Shown here: in pieces, positions 1 to 6,965 of the stretch
Layout of the letters: each line of letters opens with the position of its first letter
Position numbering within the stretch: position 1 is the first letter of the stretch
Virus genome (UHGV): UHGV-0228105
Source: a virus
DNA: 6,965 bases
Direction: 5' to 3' (one strand)
The notes under the pieces: generated by a model
Seen by the model: the letters and a program-made list of their open reading frames with translations, nothing else
What the model was told of the DNA's origin: nothing
Database searches by the model: none
Made by a program: the position numbers and the translations under genes

Positions 1-1825
1 CAATGCGGACCTTCCAGGCCACACCGTCAACAATAAAGCCCTCCTGCTGCTCAAGGTAAGGCTCGTCATTACCGTCAAGATAAGCCACCTCAATTGTGTC
101 CGTTCCCTGTGCTGAAAGCATGTACCATTGCTTATCACTGACTTCATCAAGGCGGGGATCGACAATAATATCCAGTTGTTTGTGGTACGGGTTATATGAA
201 CCACTGTTTGTATCGGCACCAAAAGGCGTGGTTGAGTTAACCATTTGCAACGCTCTGTCTTCCAGAGCCGCTGGAACAAGAAGGAATTTTGGCACAATAT
301 TCAGCACTTCACCGTTTTCATCCCTCTGTGTGCGCATTGCACGGCGTGCAATGCCAAGCCCTGTAGTGCTGACTCCGTTATCAATATCATTTCCGTGTTT
401 TTTGCTGAACAGCGGTATACCGTCAGAAAGCTTTGTGTTTCCTGTCAGCACCAGATGAACCAGATTACCCACCGTTCTGGCGGCTGCTCGCCCCATTGCC
501 TGTGGGATAACTGTTAACTGATTCAGGTCATCGTTAATAATCGCCTGTCGGGTAATGCTGAAAATATTTCCGTAAGTTGCCAGCGCGATTGGTTCGCCAC
601 GGTCACTGGTGGTGATGTATTTATATTCCGCGCCTTCCGGCACTTTGTTTAATGTAGAGAAGCCATTCAGGCCAACACGACGTGCCTCATGGAAGTTTGA
701 CAATGAACCTTTTTTCGTCCACTGGCGGAACGTTTCGCCGCTGTGTTCCCATCCGGCAAGCACGGATTTTTCAGCACCACCAGCAAGGATATAAGTAAAA
801 TCGCTGCTGCTGTGGGTGAATGCCGCGTTTACTATCTGCGAGCGTGTGCTGTAGCTGCCTGTGCTTATGCCGCGATGGGTTAATGATGCCTGCGCCATAT
901 CGAAAAGGCTCATCATGGCGTAAGGGTTGCCGCGTTCTGCCTGCTCGTGCCCAAGACGCGCATTAAGCCCCTGACGCATTGCATCACCCGTTATGTTGCC
1001 GTTATCCGTATATGCGTAGTAAAGATTTGCAGGTGTGGTTTTGTTTGTCGGTGTCGATTCTTTACCCATAGTGAGTAAAAGACGTTCGCGCGCATCCTCA
1101 ACGCTACACCCTGAATCAGCAAGACAACTTATAGCCAGGTCGTTATATCTTCCGTTGAACGTACCGAACAACTCACGGATCCCGTTGAGTCGTTCCTGTT
1201 CTCCGCTGGTAGTTTTCTGGCTGATCATGTTCTTAATATTTTCCGGCATATTTGAAAAATCTCCGATTCGTTTTGATTCAATTCGGGCCATTGCTGTAAT
1301 CGCGGGTATAACCTCGTCTGCGAAGCCGTTAGCCCTGCACTCGTTGCCATCCATCCAGGTTTCCGCCTCCATCATGGCGGTGATTTCCTGTTTGCTCTTC
1401 CCCGTTCTTCCGGCGTAGGTTTCCGCCATCGTGTCGCCCATCTTGTCCATCAGGTCGGCAAAGCGGCGAACATCTCCCGACACTCCGGCTGTAACGCCAC
1501 GGGGGGCGTGTATCATCATCATTGCGTTTTCAGGCATAACGATGTGATCGCCACACATGGCAATAAACGAGGCCATAGAAGCCGCCATACCTTCAATGTG
1601 TACGATTTTTTTTGCCGGATGATTTTTCAGGGCGTTATAGATAGCCAGCCCTTCAAAGATGTCACCACCTGGTGAATGAATGCTCAGATGGATTTCAGAC
1701 ACATTACCGCACGCGTTGATCTCGTCAGTAAGTGCCGATGCCTTTACACCGTACCCGCCGATCTCGTCATAAATGCGCACATGTGCAACATCTGACATAG
1801 CCTTAATGGAAAACCATGTTTTCAT
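1..1825 (-). CDS. ClpP-like (S14) prohead serine protease fused in-frame to a phage major capsid protein; start complete, 3' end runs off the left edge of the window
   Basis: Minus-strand frame is open from the ATG at 1825-1823 down to position 2 (608 codons, no stop). It is absent from the ORF track only because the stop lies outside the window. The N-terminal ~190 aa carry ClpP-type motifs (IHLSIHSPGGDIFEGLAIYNAL; GMAASMASFIAMCGD with a candidate catalytic Ser; MMMIHAPRGVTAG; ECRANGFADEVI). The C-terminal part (TYGNIFSITRQAIINDDLNQLTVIPQAMGRAAARTVGNLV ... PFGADTNSGSYNPY ... EVAYLDGNDEPYLEQQEGFIVDGVAWKVRI) looks like a phage major capsid protein. The start overlaps the upstream stop as ATGA. 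Plus-strand ORFs in 96-1418 are antisense artefacts. Confidence 0.8.
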   Translation of the reverse strand, partial: MKTWFSIKAMSDVAHVRIYDEIGGYGVKASALTDEINACGNVSEIHLSIHSPGGDIFEGLAIYNALKNHPAKKIVHIEGMAASMASFIAMCGDHIVMPENAMMMIHAPRGVTAGVSGDVRRFADLMDKMGDTMAETYAGRTGKSKQEITAMMEAETWMDGNECRANGFADEVIPAITAMARIESKRIGDFSNMPENIKNMISQKTTSGEQERLNGIRELFGTFNGRYNDLAISCLADSGCSVEDARERLLLTMGKESTPTNKTTPANLYYAYTDNGNITGDAMRQGLNARLGHEQAERGNPYAMMSLFDMAQASLTHRGISTGSYSTRSQIVNAAFTHSSSDFTYILAGGAEKSVLAGWEHSGETFRQWTKKGSLSNFHEARRVGLNGFSTLNKVPEGAEYKYITTSDRGEPIALATYGNIFSITRQAIINDDLNQLTVIPQAMGRAAARTVGNLVHLVLTGNTKLSDGIPLFSKKHGNDIDNGVSTTGLGIARRAMRTQRDENGEVLNIVPKFLLVPAALEDRALQMVNSTTPFGADTNSGSYNPYHKQLDIIVDPRLDEVSDKQWYMLSAQGTDTIEVAYLDGNDEPYLEQQEGFIVDGVAWKVRI

Positions 1826-2016
1826 AGCCAGGCTCCTAACGTTGCCTGGTACCAGTATTCAACCGCGCTGCGTGTGATTTGTCCTTTCGTGGGTACTGGC
1901 ATACCCGGGTGATTATCTTTGATGAACTGCTGATAGCGTTCGATCTTCTCCATAGTTCCGGCGTCTATGTGTACCGTGGCACTTTTATCCGGCTTTCTGG
2001 TGTTGTTCTCTGGCAT
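1822..2016 (-). CDS. Small protein (64 aa), possibly ribbon-helix-helix DNA-binding; translationally coupled to the protease-capsid gene
   Basis: ORF-track ORF 1822..2049 (75 aa). The internal ATG at 2016-2014 has a near-ideal Shine-Dalgarno (GGAGGCGGA, 7 nt spacer), so the start is placed there; 2049 is the alternative. Sequence MPENNTRKPDKSATVHIDAGTMEKIERYQQFIKDNHPGMPVPTKGQITRSAVEYWYQATLGAWL fits a strand-helix-loop-helix pattern. Stop TGA overlaps the downstream ATG (ATGA). Confidence 0.55.
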   Translation of the reverse strand: MPENNTRKPDKSATVHIDAGTMEKIERYQQFIKDNHPGMPVPTKGQITRSAVEYWYQATLGAWL

Positions 2017-2211
2017 AAATCCGCCTCCGTTTTGATTAACGGGCATCATTATTGATCGATAAAAGTAATAGATAAATCATTTTCTACCTGAAAATCAGAT
2101 TATGTTTTTTCTGATTATTCTCAGAGAGGCAAAGCCATTGACGCATTTTTGCTATTGAAGCAATATTAAGACTCGTCATCCTGGCGATAAAAACTCCTTT
2201 GTCGTGTAAAA

Positions 2212-2247: not shown

Positions 2248-2444
2248 GCGCCTGTTTTTTTGTAAATGTTTTCGGGAACGCTCCAGTGATGAACGAAAAA
2301 CAACCTTATTCGACACTAAAAATTTTTATTCCTCAATATATCAATAACTTATAGTGGTGGTGATGGTGCCATAAAAATCAAAAAATGCGCCTTTTTCCGC
2401 GCCCCTCCGCCCCGTGGACAGGCTCACCCCGCCAGGAGGACCCG

Positions 2445-2468
2445 CAAAAAAGCCGGATTGCTCCGGCT
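2445..2468 (-). terminator. Rho-independent terminator of the upstream minus-strand small genes
   Basis: Minus-strand RNA: stem GCCGGA / UCCGGC, or 7 bp if the flanking A-U pair is counted (plus 2451-2457 and 2462-2468), GCAA tetraloop (GNRA type), then a U5-6 tract (plus A-tract 2446-2450). Lies 7 nt downstream of the stop at 2475-2477. Confidence 0.55.
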
Positions 2469-2474
2469 GTGTGA

Positions 2475-2750
2475 TTAGCTGTCCTGGTAATTGCGCCATA
2501 TTTCATCGCTTACACCATCTATACCCATTTCAGCATAAGTGCGATCTACTGCCTTTCTCAGGTCACCGAAGTTATCCGGCGGCTCCGGTGGCCTCTGTGC
2601 CTTCCTGGAACATTCCAGCCGTCGCATCGTAACCTGATGCCGTTCCTTGTCTGTCTCCACCAGCAGCATGACTTCACCCCATCGCGCCGCCGCCCTCCGG
2701 TAAAAGCCTTTCGCCTCGAGTTCCTCCGCTATGCGGTCATGTACCATCAC
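2475..2750 (-). CDS. Small protein (91 aa), tentatively PerC/Pch-family transcriptional activator-like
   Basis: ORF-track ORF; overlaps the upstream ORF by 14 nt and is followed by a terminator. N-terminal segment DRIAEELEAKGFYRRAAARWGEVML matches my recollection of the PerC-family signature (acidic helix then RRAA-RW). This is recalled, not searched. Confidence 0.5.
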   Translation of the reverse strand: MMVHDRIAEELEAKGFYRRAAARWGEVMLLVETDKERHQVTMRRLECSRKAQRPPEPPDNFGDLRKAVDRTYAEMGIDGVSDEIWRNYQDS

Positions 2751-3060: not shown

Positions 3061-3300
3061 ACCTCTCCCCCTCTACCCCTTCTACCCAGCACCACCAAAA
3101 GCCAGCAATGGCGCACCTTTCAGCAGGGTAGAGGGCTTTTAATCCCCTTCTACCCGCCCTCTACCTGTCTACCTGGAATTGATAAAATCAGGTAGAAGAG
3201 GTAGAGGGCTTTTATTAGCCTTCGACCTGGCCCTCTACCCACCTATCATATTGAATAATATATATTTATTTACTTCAGGTAGAGGAGGTAGAGGGCTTTT
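3061..3300. repeat. Iteron array with AT-rich core: candidate origin of replication
   Basis: At least 11 copies of a 9-mer family in both orientations. GGTAGAGGGCTTTT occurs at 3127-3140, 3200-3213 and 3287-3300; degenerate copies GGTAGAAGA at 3191-3199 and GGTAGAGGA at 3278-3286. Inverse copies CCCTCTACC at 3069-3077, 3157-3165 and 3231-3239; CTTCTACCC at 3079-3087 and 3147-3155; TCTACC at 3168-3173. A 30-bp almost pure AT stretch lies at 3245-3275. The array ends 9 nt from the primase stop codon. Confidence 0.6.
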
Positions 3301-3308
3301 GCAAAAAA

Positions 3309-5057
3309 TTATAAAAACGCGTCACAATCGTCTGTTGTTATTGCGTTAGTCTGCGTTACTCCCTTAACTTTCCGAGTAATATATTCATGACCGTAAACTT
3401 TCGCAGCGGGTTTCATAGCTTTGCTGAACTCAGCCACGTTTAGCGGCTTGTTCCTTCCGGCGTATGCCATAAACGCCAGATAGACGCGGTAAAGGCTGTT
3501 TCTGGTCGTGTACCTGGAAGAGTCACCACCACCGCCCATCATCAGGCCGTGCGCTTCCTCCAGAAAATTAAGAAACTGGCAAAACTCAATAACCGGATCC
3601 GTTTGCTGCTTTATCGCCAGTGCTTCATCACCGTCACGCTGTTCCAGTAGTAAAGCCCGCGCCTTTTCAGGGTCGGCAAAGTTCGCCAGTAATCGGCGGA
3701 TAATGACGGGGATTTCAGCCGCGATTTTTTCCGGTAGCTCCCTGTCTTTTTCAGCCTCACTGACGATATTGTCGAAACGGAAAATCACGCGACGACGTGC
3801 CACGCCTCCGGCCCGTTCGGTGAATATCATCGGGTTGTTGTTGGTTGCCAGCACAACCGCCCTGATTACCGCTGTGAAACGCTTCTCATATTTCGGGTTA
3901 ATTTCCACGGGGTCACCGCCCGTGATTTTCTTGATGCCCGTGCCTTCGCCTGTATATTTCGGCTGGTCAGCCAGGACAATAAGCCGACTCCCGACAACCT
4001 GCGCACGCCCACCAGCATCATCAAGCGATGTCATCTCAGCACTTACCGTGTTCTGTTTCCCTGCCAGAAGGCTGGCTATATGCGTAAATGTACTCTTGCC
4101 GCTCCCGCCCTCTCCTGTGGCCTCAATAAACATCTGCCAGTCGTACCGGTTCGCCATAATCATGTACAGCGCGGCACATATACGCATCATCTTGCGCGGG
4201 TCTTTTCCGGCTGCGTGCTCAAGCCATTTATGAAAGTTTGGCGCGTTGTCGCGAATGTTCTCCCCTGGTGCTGGTGGCGTGTACTCAATGCCGTTGTGCG
4301 TGGTGATCCAGTTCTCCGGCGTGTGCGGGGAAAACTCCCCCGTTTTCAGGTCAAGCGCACCATTGGCGAACGGCAGCAAATCGCCGGACGGCTCGCCCAT
4401 TGGTTCGGCAATAACTTTTAACGCTTCCACGGCGTTATTGATTACGCGCTTGCTGAACGTGGCTTTATGTTCTGAATAAATCGCCACCATTTCGCGGCTC
4501 AGCTCCATTGTGCTGACCGGGCACCATACCCCGCCGCGCCAGATGTGGACGATTTCACTTTCCGGATCCACACAAACGCCATCAAATCGACCAGCAAGCA
4601 TCTGTGCGCGCTCACTGTCTGCCATTTGTGCCAGTTGCGTATTTTTCTGCTCCGGCATGGTAATCCCTGCGGCAATATTTTCACGCTCAGCATTCAGATA
4701 GCGCCGCCAGTTTTCACACTTCTGACCGTGCATTCCTTCTGGGTAAAAATTCGCATCCTGAATATCTGCCACCGCCAGCTTCTGACCAATCTTTTTGGTC
4801 TCCACTAAATCCAGTTCTCCGGCCTGGTACAGCCTTACGCGCTTTTTCCCATCCGGAACAATTTTCAGCGCATCAAGTTCGGCAAGCTGCTTTGGCCCAA
4901 GCCACACAGGCGGCACATTATCGCCGGATGCGGGGCCATCCTGTTCCTGCCATTGTTCCGCGTGTGACCAGGCATCACTACCCGCAAAGATAATTACCTC
5001 TGTGTCTTTGTGTTTTATTCCGCGTGGCTGTTTTTTTACGTTCGGTGCCAGTTTCAC
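3309..5057 (-). CDS. Primase-helicase / replication initiator of the D5 / P4-alpha (SF3 NTPase) family, 582 aa
   Basis: Long ORF-track ORF. Walker A GEGGSGKST followed by a hydrophobic stretch ending in acidic residue (RLIVLADQ), typical of phage/plasmid primase C-terminal NTPase domains. Start is GTG at 5057-5055 with AGGGG ~8 nt upstream, overlapping the upstream stop (GTGA). Stop TAA at 3311-3309. An N-terminal primase catalytic motif is not recognisable by eye. Confidence 0.88.
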   Translation of the reverse strand: MKLAPNVKKQPRGIKHKDTEVIIFAGSDAWSHAEQWQEQDGPASGDNVPPVWLGPKQLAELDALKIVPDGKKRVRLYQAGELDLVETKKIGQKLAVADIQDANFYPEGMHGQKCENWRRYLNAERENIAAGITMPEQKNTQLAQMADSERAQMLAGRFDGVCVDPESEIVHIWRGGVWCPVSTMELSREMVAIYSEHKATFSKRVINNAVEALKVIAEPMGEPSGDLLPFANGALDLKTGEFSPHTPENWITTHNGIEYTPPAPGENIRDNAPNFHKWLEHAAGKDPRKMMRICAALYMIMANRYDWQMFIEATGEGGSGKSTFTHIASLLAGKQNTVSAEMTSLDDAGGRAQVVGSRLIVLADQPKYTGEGTGIKKITGGDPVEINPKYEKRFTAVIRAVVLATNNNPMIFTERAGGVARRRVIFRFDNIVSEAEKDRELPEKIAAEIPVIIRRLLANFADPEKARALLLEQRDGDEALAIKQQTDPVIEFCQFLNFLEEAHGLMMGGGGDSSRYTTRNSLYRVYLAFMAYAGRNKPLNVAEFSKAMKPAAKVYGHEYITRKVKGVTQTNAITTDDCDAFL

Positions 5058-5815: not shown

Positions 5816-6038
5816 GGTGTACCCCTCCGCATTTTTTTTCGTTAGAAATAAGCGTTCTTCTTTCCTGTTCATCGCTCAGGAATACGCAGACCTCACCGCT
5901 AAGGCGTTTAAGTAAGCCGATGATTGCCCCTGATTCGCTGTCGGTCATCATGCCAGGGTAATCCTCTGCCAGTGCGCAAATAACTTCGATTTGGTGGGCG
6001 CGTTCTGCTGCCTGTTGTAGTGTGATTTCCTGGCTCAT
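5805..6038 (-). CDS. Hypothetical small protein (77 aa from the proposed start)
   Basis: ORF-track ORF 5805..6095. Start placed at the ATG at 6038-6036 (MSQEITLQQAAERAHQIEV...), preceded by AGGAGGT at about -8 and overlapping the upstream stop as ATGA. Confidence 0.55.
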   Translation of the reverse strand: MSQEITLQQAAERAHQIEVICALAEDYPGMMTDSESGAIIGLLKRLSGEVCVFLSDEQERRTLISNEKKCGGVHHVQ

Positions 6039-6229
6039 AAGCCTACCTCCTGACGAATACGGGCGGCAAATACAGCAACACAACCGGACGGGCAACGGTT
6101 ACGCGCTTCGCGTTCCGTCCAGGCGGTTACGTGGATGATTTGAGATTCTCCGGCACTCAGGGCCAGAAAACGCCACACAAAGGCCGTTTGTGTGTGTGCT
6201 AGTCGTGGAGTATGATTTACGGCAACCAT
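6035..6229 (-). CDS. Hypothetical small protein (64 aa), first gene of the minus-strand operon
   Basis: ORF-track ORF. GAGAGGT Shine-Dalgarno ~9 nt upstream of the ATG at 6229. Contains a Cys pair (RNRCPSGC). Lies ~95 nt downstream of the predicted promoter. Confidence 0.5.
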   Translation of the reverse strand: MVAVNHTPRLAHTQTAFVWRFLALSAGESQIIHVTAWTEREARNRCPSGCVAVFAARIRQEVGL

Positions 6230-6308
6230 AAATTTACCTCTCTATAGTGTTTGTGGTTAGAGGCCCTGCTAGTGGTAGCGACACTTGCGGGGCTTTGCAT
6301 TTATGAAC

Positions 6309-6361
6309 CCTGAGCAGCTCAGGTGTGGCCCACTATATGTTTTAGGTGTGGCCCACGTCAA
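6309..6361 (-). promoter_or_regulatory. Control region: predicted sigma70-like promoter for the minus-strand operon, overlapped by a perfect palindrome and two 13-bp direct repeats
   Basis: On the minus strand: -35 TTGACG (plus 6356-6361), 18-nt spacer, -10 TATAGT (plus 6332-6337). Direct repeats AGGTGTGGCCCAC at 6321-6333 and 6344-6356, each containing GTGG-N-CCAC, with 23 bp between starts. Perfect palindrome CCTGAGC-A-GCTCAGG at 6309-6323, at or just downstream of the predicted start site. Confidence 0.45.
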
Positions 6362-6422
6362 GGGTTTTATTTGCGCTTTTTCTGTGTATACTGTCCCCCA
6401 CCAATCAACAGGAGAAACAGCA

Positions 6423-6602
6423 ATGGCAACGGGTACAACAAACGCAAAATCACAAGCTTTAAAGGCTCGTGTACCGCATGAAATAGTTGACGCAATGGAA
6501 TCAGTGAAAGACTCAGGCGAAAGCACATCACAATTTATCATTACGTCAATGCAAGGCGAGATCAAACGCCGCCAGCGCCGCAAGGCCAAAGAAGCGGAAT
6601 AA
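6423..6602 (+). CDS. Small ribbon-helix-helix (CopG/Arc-like) DNA-binding protein, 59 aa; candidate repressor
   Basis: ATG at 6423 preceded by AGGAGA (6410-6415, 7-nt spacer). Sequence MATGTTNAKSQALKARVPHEIVDAMESVKDSGESTSQFIITSMQGEIKRRQRRKAKEAE fits strand (LKARVP), helix (HEIVDAMESVKDSG), helix (STSQFIITSMQGEI). It is the only plus-strand gene, divergent from the operon and convergent with alpA. The overlapping 153-aa minus ORF (6269..6730) is judged spurious. Confidence 0.55.
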   Translation: MATGTTNAKSQALKARVPHEIVDAMESVKDSGESTSQFIITSMQGEIKRRQRRKAKEAE

Positions 6603-6690
6603 TCCACCAGCAAACCACCACACTGATCACATTGCCCACCAGCCAGCAAATCGCTATGATGTTCGGGCTTATGTTTAGTGTTTTCCCATT

Positions 6691-6721
6691 GGCGACCTCT
6701 GATCCGGGTCGCCTTTGTTTT
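6691..6721 (+). terminator. Rho-independent terminator downstream of the RHH gene
   Basis: GGCGACC (6691-6697) / GGTCGCC (6707-6713) form a 7-bp perfect stem with a 9-nt loop, followed by TTTGTTTT (6714-6721). No U-tract on the minus-strand side, so it is unidirectional. Confidence 0.5.
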
Positions 6722-6740
6722 ATGTGTCATATGCTCCCCT

Positions 6741-6965
6741 TTACGCTGCCTTACCTGAATTAATGCGATCCCGGCTTTTAACCCATTCCATAACCTCGGA
6801 CAGCAGCCAACCTACAGAACGACCGCCCAGATTAAGGCGTGACGGAAATCGCCCTTTTTTCTCCAGTTCGTAGCGTGTAGTACGGCACACTCCAGTTAAC
6901 TTACGACATTCATCCTCACGGATTACGCGATCTGATAGTGATTGAAATTGTGTATTTTGATTCAT
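6741..6965 (-). CDS. alpA: AlpA-family (MerR-type HTH, excisionase-like) transcriptional regulator
   Basis: Translation contains the AlpA-type core CRKLTGVCRTTRYELEKKGRFPSRLNLGGRSVGWLLSEVMEWVKSR (compare the recalled pattern L-x-R-S-T-I-Y-x-L-x-x-G-x-FP-x-P-x-x-LGGR-x-V-GW-x-x-SE-V-x-x-W). The ATG falls exactly at the window edge (6965-6963), so the true N-terminus could lie outside the window. Confidence 0.85.
   Translation of the reverse strand: MNQNTQFQSLSDRVIREDECRKLTGVCRTTRYELEKKGRFPSRLNLGGRSVGWLLSEVMEWVKSRDRINSGKAA

Follow-up and report, generated by a model that had tools for sequence, protein, structure and literature searches.

Several described systems resemble the gene analysed here. 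In the Pseudomonas phage MD8, gp5 has been read as protease, scaffold and major capsid protein (MCP) in one gene (PMC8508860). In phages lambda (C/Nu3) and Mu (I/Z) a protease of the ClpP superfamily is fused to the scaffold, and the scaffold is also made as a nested in-frame product (PMC8508860). Satellites can carry capsid genes as well: of 29 Gram-negative PICIs used as reference, 21 are reported to have them, and some PICIs have been noted to contain a CLP_protease gene (PMC10111431). Satellite-borne homologs of helper capsid genes include SaPIbov5 Ccm, which is a diverged paralogue of phi12 CP (PMC6893505), c1499 of EcCICFT073 and the capsid gene of PmCI172. Neither Ccm nor c1499 has a protease domain, and a function has been demonstrated for Ccm only. 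EcCICFT073 packages phage-sized DNA, its capsid gene is dispensable (deletion of c1499 gave no phenotype), and its interference with the helper maps to Rpp rather than to the capsid genes. Barth et al. proposed that PICIs go through cycles of late-gene capture and loss. No experimental test of a protease/capsid fusion of the NF045540 type in a PICI was found in the literature consulted.

The stretch of DNA analysed here (the window, 6,965 nucleotides) contains a fusion gene of this kind at 1..1825 on the - strand, consisting of a ClpP-like prohead protease, a linker that may serve as scaffold, and an MCP. The gene is carried by a small PICI-type satellite of Escherichia coli and not by a phage. 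Its overall interpretation as a PICI-borne NF045540 fusion, which probably processes itself and has a capsid role linked to a helper phage, is given a probability of about 85%, judged from sequence comparison, structural models and analogy. The protein of the MD8-like phage CF60a is 47% identical to the window protein over the whole length, and the MCP part of MD8 gp5 is closest to that of Mu, as is the case here. However, gp5 (693 aa) is the capsid gene of a complete phage, whereas the present copy resides in a satellite that has no other head genes.

When the reverse complement of 1-1828 was translated, a frame of 608 codons without a stop was found, running from 1825 to base 2. Such a run would arise by chance with a probability of approximately (61/64)^608, roughly 2e-13. 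Stop codons were abundant in the three + frames and in the other two - frames of this segment. The + strand contained no long ORF; a + strand reading was thus ruled out and the feature was assigned to the - strand. The start at the ATG at 1825-1823 is well supported by sequence signals, because an AGGAG motif is located 7 nt upstream and the ATG overlaps, as ATGA, the stop codon of a 75-aa ORF (1822..2049, - strand). This small ORF belongs to phrog_4934, a family with no assigned function, and is kept upstream of the fusion in both satellite lineages described below; the overlap indicates that the two genes are translationally coupled. A search of the - strand ahead of the unit formed by the 75-aa ORF and the fusion detected no sigma-70-like promoter. 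At the other end the frame stays open to base 1 and the window contains no stop codon for it. Related proteins run 18-21 residues past the window edge (ending with KVRIDAGVAALDYRGMVRAISS in L009; 629 aa in total in L001), and, judged by these relatives, 1-1825 represents the first 608 codons of a gene of ~626-629 codons. The initial annotation had described a single ORF at 1-1825 without stating the strand: the uninterrupted frame was confirmed, but the gene is not complete in the window. GMAASMAS (with Ser83) and MMMIHAPRGVTAG (with His106) were both present in the translation, and the domain limits proposed there lie near those found here (protease ~1-175, linker ~176-265/277, capsid from ~266).

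The protein matched the curated model NF045540 (scaf_prot_MCP1, 'ClpP-like prohead protease/major capsid protein fusion protein') with 832.1 bits against a cutoff of 475, and it falls in phrog_133 of the PHROGs collection. Pfam searches detected CLP_protease (4e-33) and Phage_capsid_4 (4.8e-49). Together with the fold searches described below, these matches bear out that one frame encodes a ClpP-like protease, a linker and a capsid domain of the HK97 fold. Members of NF045540 and phrog_133 have the same architecture and belong to the same sequence family; the window copy differs only in being short of the last ~18-21 codons. Among full-length database proteins the closest share 92% identity over 629 aa, and PGAP uses the NF045540 name for the corresponding gene of E. 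coli genomes. Both genuine phages and two lineages of satellites have this architecture. With two curated NCBI models, the PHROGs families phrog_133 and phrog_4523, and a published reading of the MD8 type, this is an ordinary, well-known and already named gene type, and the view that such a fusion is unusual could not be upheld. A sequencing error or frameshift that joins separate protease and capsid genes had been named as a possible source of the long frame, and the gene is indeed split in the short-read contig L009 and in the draft Vibrio genome L010. Against this, 143 complete E. coli genomes showed the same architecture (at least 80% of window 1-2100 covered), the frame is undivided in hundreds of independent records, both complete genomes and phages, and the curated NCBIfam models were themselves derived from the fusion. 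The probability of an artefact is therefore negligible.

The protease domain comprises residues 1-175 (1301..1825, - strand), as delimited by alignment with ClpP, the AlphaFold2 (AF2) model, Foldseek and the NF045542 match. Ser83 (codon 1577-1579), which lies in GMAASMAS, and His106 (codon 1508-1510) match the catalytic residues of ClpP by position in the alignment, whereas the position of the catalytic Asp of ClpP is occupied by Glu155 (codon 1361-1363). All three residues are invariant among 191 homologs. The serine that had been suggested for mutagenesis can thus be equated with Ser83. The model of this domain had a pLDDT of 80-90 over residues 10-175, and in Foldseek it matched ClpP chains with TM-scores of 0.78-0.84 and an rmsd of ~1.9 A, in agreement with the S14 fold that had been expected. 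The match to the head maturation protease model NF045542 (201 bits, cutoff 120) was well above threshold. A bona fide cellular ClpP was considered and rejected: the TIGR00493 score was 62 bits against a cutoff of 308.6, and Glu155 replaces the catalytic Asp. On the strength of the alignment and the model, the domain is classified as a ClpP-like serine protease of the head-maturation type.

Residues 266-608 (2..1030, - strand) form the N-arm and the capsid domain, as delimited by Pfam, AF2 and Foldseek. Pfam profiles PF25209 (Phage_capsid_4, 168 bits, cutoff 27) and PF10124 (Mu-like_gpT, 40.6 bits, cutoff 20.1) matched this part. The PDB sequence matches listed, from single-sequence as well as profile searches, included ClpP chains only and no solved capsid protein; the capsid relationship thus rested on Pfam and on fold comparison. 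The full-length AF2 model was good for the protease and poor for the capsid part (pLDDT 61.7, pTM 0.36), therefore the capsid domain was modelled alone. This model reached a pLDDT of 76 and a pTM of 0.73, with low confidence in the E-loop region (~377-408). The Foldseek matches listed for it were almost all HK97-fold shells (capsids and encapsulins), the best among them being the JBD30 procapsid (3.5e-05) and the Mu capsid. The TM-scores of 0.37-0.45 were modest and support the fold class rather than a close match. As far as profiles and model can tell, the C-terminal domain is an HK97-fold capsid domain of the Mu gpT type, as had been anticipated. The gpT type of MCP is shared with Mu, as seen from both the Mu-like_gpT match and the match to the Mu capsid fold, but in Mu and in lambda the capsid protein is encoded by a separate gene.

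The two domains are connected by a linker (residues 176-265, 1031..1300, - strand, defined by AF2 and alignment), which is the putative scaffold. Residues 177-206 and 255-277 were of low confidence in the AF2 model, and residues 207-252 formed a small helical bundle with invariant Cys234, Asp237 and Cys240. A linker that is largely of low confidence or disordered and contains one conserved helical bundle fits a scaffold or delta-like role. Within the linker, Met193 (ATG at 1247..1249, - strand, GGAG 11 nt upstream) is a candidate internal start. Met193-Pro194 is invariant, and an SD-like motif 10-11 nt upstream is conserved. By analogy with lambda C/Nu3 and Mu I/Z, initiation at Met193 may give a nested scaffold-MCP product. 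Because of this possibility the strict 1:1 protease-to-capsid stoichiometry, which had been deduced from the fusion, is not established. In lambda and Mu the nested product is known, whereas in the window protein the nested start is predicted from these signals.

The genes surrounding the fusion are those of a satellite. Profile matches identified, all on the - strand, an AlpA-family regulator gene (6741..6965), which is a hallmark of PICIs, a gene for an Icd-like host cell division inhibitor (6035..6229), a P4-family primase/D5-type helicase gene (pri-rep, 3309..5057) and a PerC-family regulator gene (2475..2750), which is a typical accessory gene of Gram-negative PICIs. Direct and inverted iterons of the GGTAGAGG type at 3067..3300 adjoin the primase gene on its downstream side. 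They are likely to be the satellite replication origin when the position of ori in PICIs (PMC6092414) is applied to repeats beside the primase. Directly after PerC a terminator-like hairpin with a T-run (2451..2468, - strand) divides this gene from the unit containing the 75-aa ORF and the fusion. A cos-like element at 2342..2456 (- strand) shares 83-86% identity with the sequence immediately preceding terS in an Stx2d phage and in the O157 helper prophage, and a second cos-like copy follows directly after the fusion gene in the relatives.

The left end of the island falls outside the window, and its content was deduced from relatives of 89-100% identity. In relatives L001 and L004-L009 the order int...fusion...93-aa ORF is contained in ~10 kb, and neither portal nor terL is present. 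The integrase adjoins alpA in L001 and L004-L008; in the present island this position lies outside the window. An alpA gene, pri-rep with an adjacent ori, a single direction of transcription (-) and the lack of lysis and tail genes characterize the island, on gene content, as a Gram-negative PICI-type satellite of ~10 kb, for which induction and high-frequency transfer by a helper phage are predicted; the helper-like cos element and, in L004, the insertion in a helper terL are indirect signs of this. Other satellite types were rejected. A cf-PICI has its own portal, head-tail connectors and small terminase subunit besides protease and capsid, whereas the relatives have just the small ORF, the fusion and the 93-aa ORF, joined in the 62% identical lineage by a DUF1441 TerS-like gene, and lack portal and connector genes. 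A P4-like satellite is not supported, as only the primase belongs to a P4 family and there were no matches to sid, psu or delta. In the interval from the primase to the fusion, the window has no ORF of ~144-153 aa, the size of an Rpp-type packaging redirector. The initial annotation did not mention the satellite context.

The closest phage relative of the satellite fusion, 51% identical end to end, was found in potential helper phages. In the Stx2d phage Stx2_112808 (45.9 kb) the gene order is terS-terL-portal-fusion-head/tail genes, and no MCP other than the fusion (BCI49800.1) is annotated. The homolog thus appears to be the sole capsid gene of lambdoid Stx/O157-type prophages. In L004 the satellite (~10.4 kb) sits inside terL of a prophage that has its own 659-aa fusion, so that, as in the case of Ccm, a satellite paralogue of the helper capsid protein is present, here at 51% identity and in the same chromosome region. 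BCI49800.1 and the 659-aa gene (E. coli O157:H7 3-5-1) share the catalytic residues and the linker Met-Pro with the window copy. The helper copy differs in its longer linker and in its place within a full head module, where it comes after the portal gene; the satellite linker lacks a Pro/Ala-rich stretch of ~35 aa.

If the fusion behaves like HK97, lambda C/Nu3, Mu I/Z-T and the published reading of MD8 gp5, its capsid domains would assemble into a procapsid that encloses linker and protease. Cleavage by the protease in the disordered stretch preceding the N-arm, at about residues 255-277, and its degradation of the enclosed parts would then leave ~350-370 residues as the mature capsid subunit. 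The satellite protein, a paralogue that has diverged from the capsid protein of the helper, would be made upon helper induction and would join or compete with helper capsid assembly on the helper portal. The helper terminase could subsequently package satellite DNA via the cos-like site.

More specifically, it is tentatively suggested that the cassette of cos, small ORF, fusion and cos takes over helper heads, either by building or resizing shells on the helper portal or by poisoning procapsids. The satellite subunit would process itself, its shortened linker would dictate a shell of smaller size, and the internal start at Met193 would tune the ratio of protease to capsid. Remodelling in the manner of Ccm, by which the fusion would co-assemble with helper portal and capsid into heads small enough to take up the ~10-kb satellite but not the helper genome, is a possible but doubtful role. 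The paralogous relationship to the helper capsid gene, which parallels that of Ccm to phi12 CP (PMC6893505), the shorter linker, the difference in size between the island (~10.4 kb in L004) and the related Stx2d phage (45.9 kb), and strong purifying selection on the fusion are in accord with such remodelling, but EcCICFT073, which also has a capsid homolog, packages phage-sized DNA with a dispensable capsid gene. Still less probable is plain interference, in which a dominant-negative subunit or a misplaced protease would poison helper procapsids and protect the host or the satellite. PICIs often interfere with helper packaging, and the protease residues are retained although the helper has its own protease; however, in EcCICFT073 interference was assigned to Rpp.

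A functionless relic, i.e. a captured helper late gene that is being lost, is improbable. The capture-and-loss cycles of Barth et al., the lack of a phenotype of the c1499 deletion and the split copies in L009 and L010 would be compatible with it. On the other hand, dN/dS between satellite copies was 0.09-0.12 per domain (~0.11 throughout), indicating that the gene is maintained by purifying selection, and the catalytic residues are invariant. In addition, a second satellite lineage, only 62% identical, has likewise retained the complete domain arrangement, the ORF coupled to the fusion on its upstream side and a cos-like copy on either flank. The precedent c1499 is not the same gene: c1499/c1500, a pair of the lambda E/D type, encode an E-type MCP (351 aa) and a decoration protein, without a protease.

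The gene type itself adds nothing new, being covered by curated models, annotated by name in E. coli and described in print. What this lineage offers is a complete and strongly conserved polyprotein that matches the head gene of Stx/O157 phages, together with a cos-like region, which makes it a reasonable system for studying satellite capsid genes. It could show whether such genes affect the spread of Stx-type prophages.

The initial annotation had placed a ClpP-like protease, a linker and a capsid domain in one uninterrupted frame at 1-1825, and such a frame is present: on the minus strand a run of 608 codons, beginning with ATG 1825-1823, is open as far as base 2. (The reverse frame from 1828 begins A-M-K-T-W-F.) Both motifs quoted in that annotation, GMAASMAS and IHAPRGVTAG, were found in it. 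Over 1-1830 all three plus frames contain stops, and no long plus-strand ORF was listed; translation showed that the remaining two reverse frames are closed over the same segment. The fusion ORF is absent from the ORF listing because it crosses the left edge of the window. This edge cuts off its 3' end, and no stop codon was found within the window; the fusion proteins of relatives extend 18-21 residues further. At the 5' end, an AGGAG lies 7 nt upstream of ATG 1825, which shares the sequence ATGA with the TGA of the preceding 75-aa ORF. Such a start/stop overlap is the usual mark of translational coupling. Together, the AGGAG and the ATGA overlap convincingly support the start at ATG 1825.

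Residues 42-173 of the fusion protein matched Pfam CLP_protease (4e-33) and residues 331-607 matched Phage_capsid_4 (4.8e-49); a match to Mu-like gpT was also found. The protein scored 832 bits with NCBIfam NF045540, [quoted passage not shown] (curated cutoff 475), and matched PHROGs phrog_133 at 8e-265. The protease domain scored 201 with NF045542, "head maturation protease, ClpP-related" (cutoff 120). It is not a true ClpP, as it failed the NCBIfam equivalog (62 vs 308.6). An alignment to solved ClpP matches Ser83 and His106 with the catalytic Ser and His, and Glu155 with the position of the catalytic Asp; none of the three varies among 191 full-length homologs.

In the AlphaFold model of the 608 residues the protease domain had a pLDDT of 80-90, and Foldseek aligned it to ClpP chains with TM scores of 0.78-0.84 (~1.9 Å). 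Confidence was low at residues 177-206 and 255-277, which surround a small helical bundle in the linker (207-252, pLDDT 75-80), and mediocre in the capsid part. When residues 266-608 were remodelled alone with a broader alignment, pLDDT was 76 and pTM 0.73. The Foldseek matches listed for this model were nearly all HK97-fold shell proteins, the best being the procapsid of the Mu-like phage JBD30 (3.5e-05) and the Mu capsid. The TM scores of the predicted capsid structure (0.37-0.45) support assignment to the HK97 fold class but no closer relationship. PDB sequence searches with the fusion protein listed ClpP only, and no solved capsid protein. Thus the CLP_protease, NF045542 and ClpP-fold matches bear out the protease that had been proposed, and Phage_capsid_4 and the HK97-fold matches the capsid domain. 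Within the helical bundle of the linker (window 1031-1300) Cys234, Asp237 and Cys240 are invariant.

The possibility that a frameshift or sequencing error in the source had obscured two separate genes is contradicted by the distribution of the fusion. Among 5426 complete E. coli genomes, 143 matched window 1-2100 at a coverage of at least 80%, every time with a CDS carrying the fusion name, and 82 phage records cover at least 80% of the protein. The best full-length database proteins (629 aa) are 92% identical, and many already carry the fusion name. Two copies are split by a frameshift, with the protease in one ORF and scaffold plus capsid in another: that of a Logan short-read contig (L009, 1497-3376; ORFs of 101 and 543 aa) and that of a draft Vibrio astriarenae genome (L010, 2411-4386), where the frameshift separates the protease from the remainder. 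These look like errors or recent lesions; the single-gene fusion is genuine. It is not unusual, as had been thought, but already known: besides its membership in NF045540 and phrog_133, a 2021 paper on phage MD8 and its relatives (PMC8508860) read a single gene as protease, scaffold and major capsid protein, and one of those relatives, CF60a, gives a 47% match to the window protein. Capsid genes have likewise been described for PICIs, some of them "bearing a CLP_protease gene" (PMC10111431).

The gene belongs to a satellite, not to a phage. The minus strand of the window encodes AlpA (6741-6965), an Icd-like protein (6035-6229), a P4-family primase (3309-5057), a PerC-family protein (2475-2750, with a weak ANR-family match of 0.0015), small ORFs, DUF4222, a 94-aa ORF, the 75-aa ORF and the fusion. 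The sole exception among genes taken as real is a short, divergent YlcI/YnfO-type ORF on the plus strand (6285-6602, family match 1.6e-18). A 153-aa minus-strand ORF antisense to it (6269-6730) matched no family and is likely to be spurious. Annotated relatives (~10 kb), inserted between cspD and clpS or elsewhere, have the order integrase-HTH/AlpA-Icd-...-primase-SSB-small ORF-fusion-93-aa ORF, a layout matching Gram-negative PICIs (PMC6092414, PMC10111431). These elements contained no genes for a portal, a terminase large subunit, a tail or lysis, and they fall outside the definition of a capsid-forming PICI. Direct and inverted iterons of the GGTAGAGG type (GGTAGAGG/CCTCTACC) span 3067-3300, directly downstream of the primase gene, where PICI origins are located (PMC6092414), and this block is likely to be the replication origin. 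In the model PICI EcCICFT073 the corresponding position, behind PerC and a small ORF, is occupied by a capsid gene of lambda E type together with a decoration gene, so that its capsid gene is of another type. A second satellite lineage (L005-L008), whose fusion is 62% identical, has the identical layout plus a DUF1441 gene directly after the fusion (12171-12656), 49% identical to the small terminase subunit (TerS) of the Stx2d phage.

A terminator-like hairpin with a T-run (2451-2468, minus strand) immediately follows the PerC gene. A search of the minus strand at 2050-2450, ahead of the 75-aa/fusion unit, gave no sigma-70-like promoter; read-through or an activator may therefore be required for its expression. 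In EcCIMP1, another PICI, the PerC-like gene reportedly represses LEE and does not activate it (PMC11773190).

The Stx2d-converting phage Stx2_112808 has the order terS-terL-small ORF-portal-fusion (674 aa)-head/tail genes; as no second capsid gene is annotated there, the fusion appears to be its capsid gene. In E. coli O157:H7 3-5-1 (L004, NZ_CP038416.1) a satellite of ~10.4 kb (10031-20449, from int to the 93-aa ORF) sits inside terL of a lambdoid prophage, 3.7 kb from the prophage's own 659-aa fusion, an arrangement known as "helper-embedded PICI" (PMC10111431). Over their full length the satellite and helper fusion proteins share 51% identity; a Pro/Ala-rich stretch of ~35 aa in the helper linker is missing from that of the satellite. 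An element of ~100 nt (2342-2456, minus strand) in the ~400-nt non-coding spacer that precedes the 75-aa ORF is 83-86% identical to DNA just upstream of terS in the Stx2d phage (L003, 4458-4566) and the O157 helper (L004, 22072-22165). In lambda-type phages cos is located just upstream of terS, and the conserved core of the element, ACGGGGCGG...CGCGG, presumably resembles lambda cosN. In relatives a second cos-like copy directly follows the fusion (L001, 11819-11918; L004, 10820-10918; L005, 11933-12029), so that two copies flank the small-ORF and fusion module, recalling the two cos sites reported in EcCICFT073.

The initial annotation had also inferred a 1:1 protease-to-capsid stoichiometry. 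In a 34-sequence alignment Met193-Pro194 of the linker is invariant, and 10-11 nt 5' of the Met193 codon (1247-1249; upstream stretch 1250-1273) an SD-like motif occurs in both satellite lineages and the helper, kept despite differing residues (GGAGAT, Gly-Asp; GAGGAA, Glu-Glu). Annotation of the split Vibrio gene starts the capsid ORF at exactly the Met193 equivalent, with AAGGA upstream. These sequence features hint at Met193 as a candidate nested start, which would bear on the 1:1 ratio; nested in-frame scaffold products have precedents in lambda C/Nu3 and Mu I/Z (PMC8508860). Alternatively, conservation of the coding sequence could have produced the motif by chance; its spacing is long for an SD.

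Nei-Gojobori comparison of the window with two 92% identical satellite copies gave a dN/dS of 0.11 for the fusion (protease 0.09, linker 0.07-0.10, N-arm 0.03-0.04, capsid domain 0.12). These low values and the invariant catalytic residues argue against a decaying relic. In the same comparison dS was uneven (protease ~0.2, capsid domain ~0.7), a pattern suggestive of recombination within the fusion gene.

These results touch the question of what role a capsid polyprotein that is both complete and conserved has in a satellite without other head genes. The domain identities, catalytic-residue conservation, selection, satellite context and homology to the helper capsid gene and cos-like region are established; the mechanism we propose is drawn by analogy. 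Capsid domains would assemble with linker and protease inside; the protease would then cut the disordered segment before the N-arm and degrade the interior, and the satellite protein would join, or compete with, helper head assembly. Its putative role may be the formation of small capsids, as with SaPIbov5 Ccm, or interference, or it may contribute little. The only PICI capsid genes tested so far proved dispensable, and EcCICFT073 DNA is packaged at phage length.
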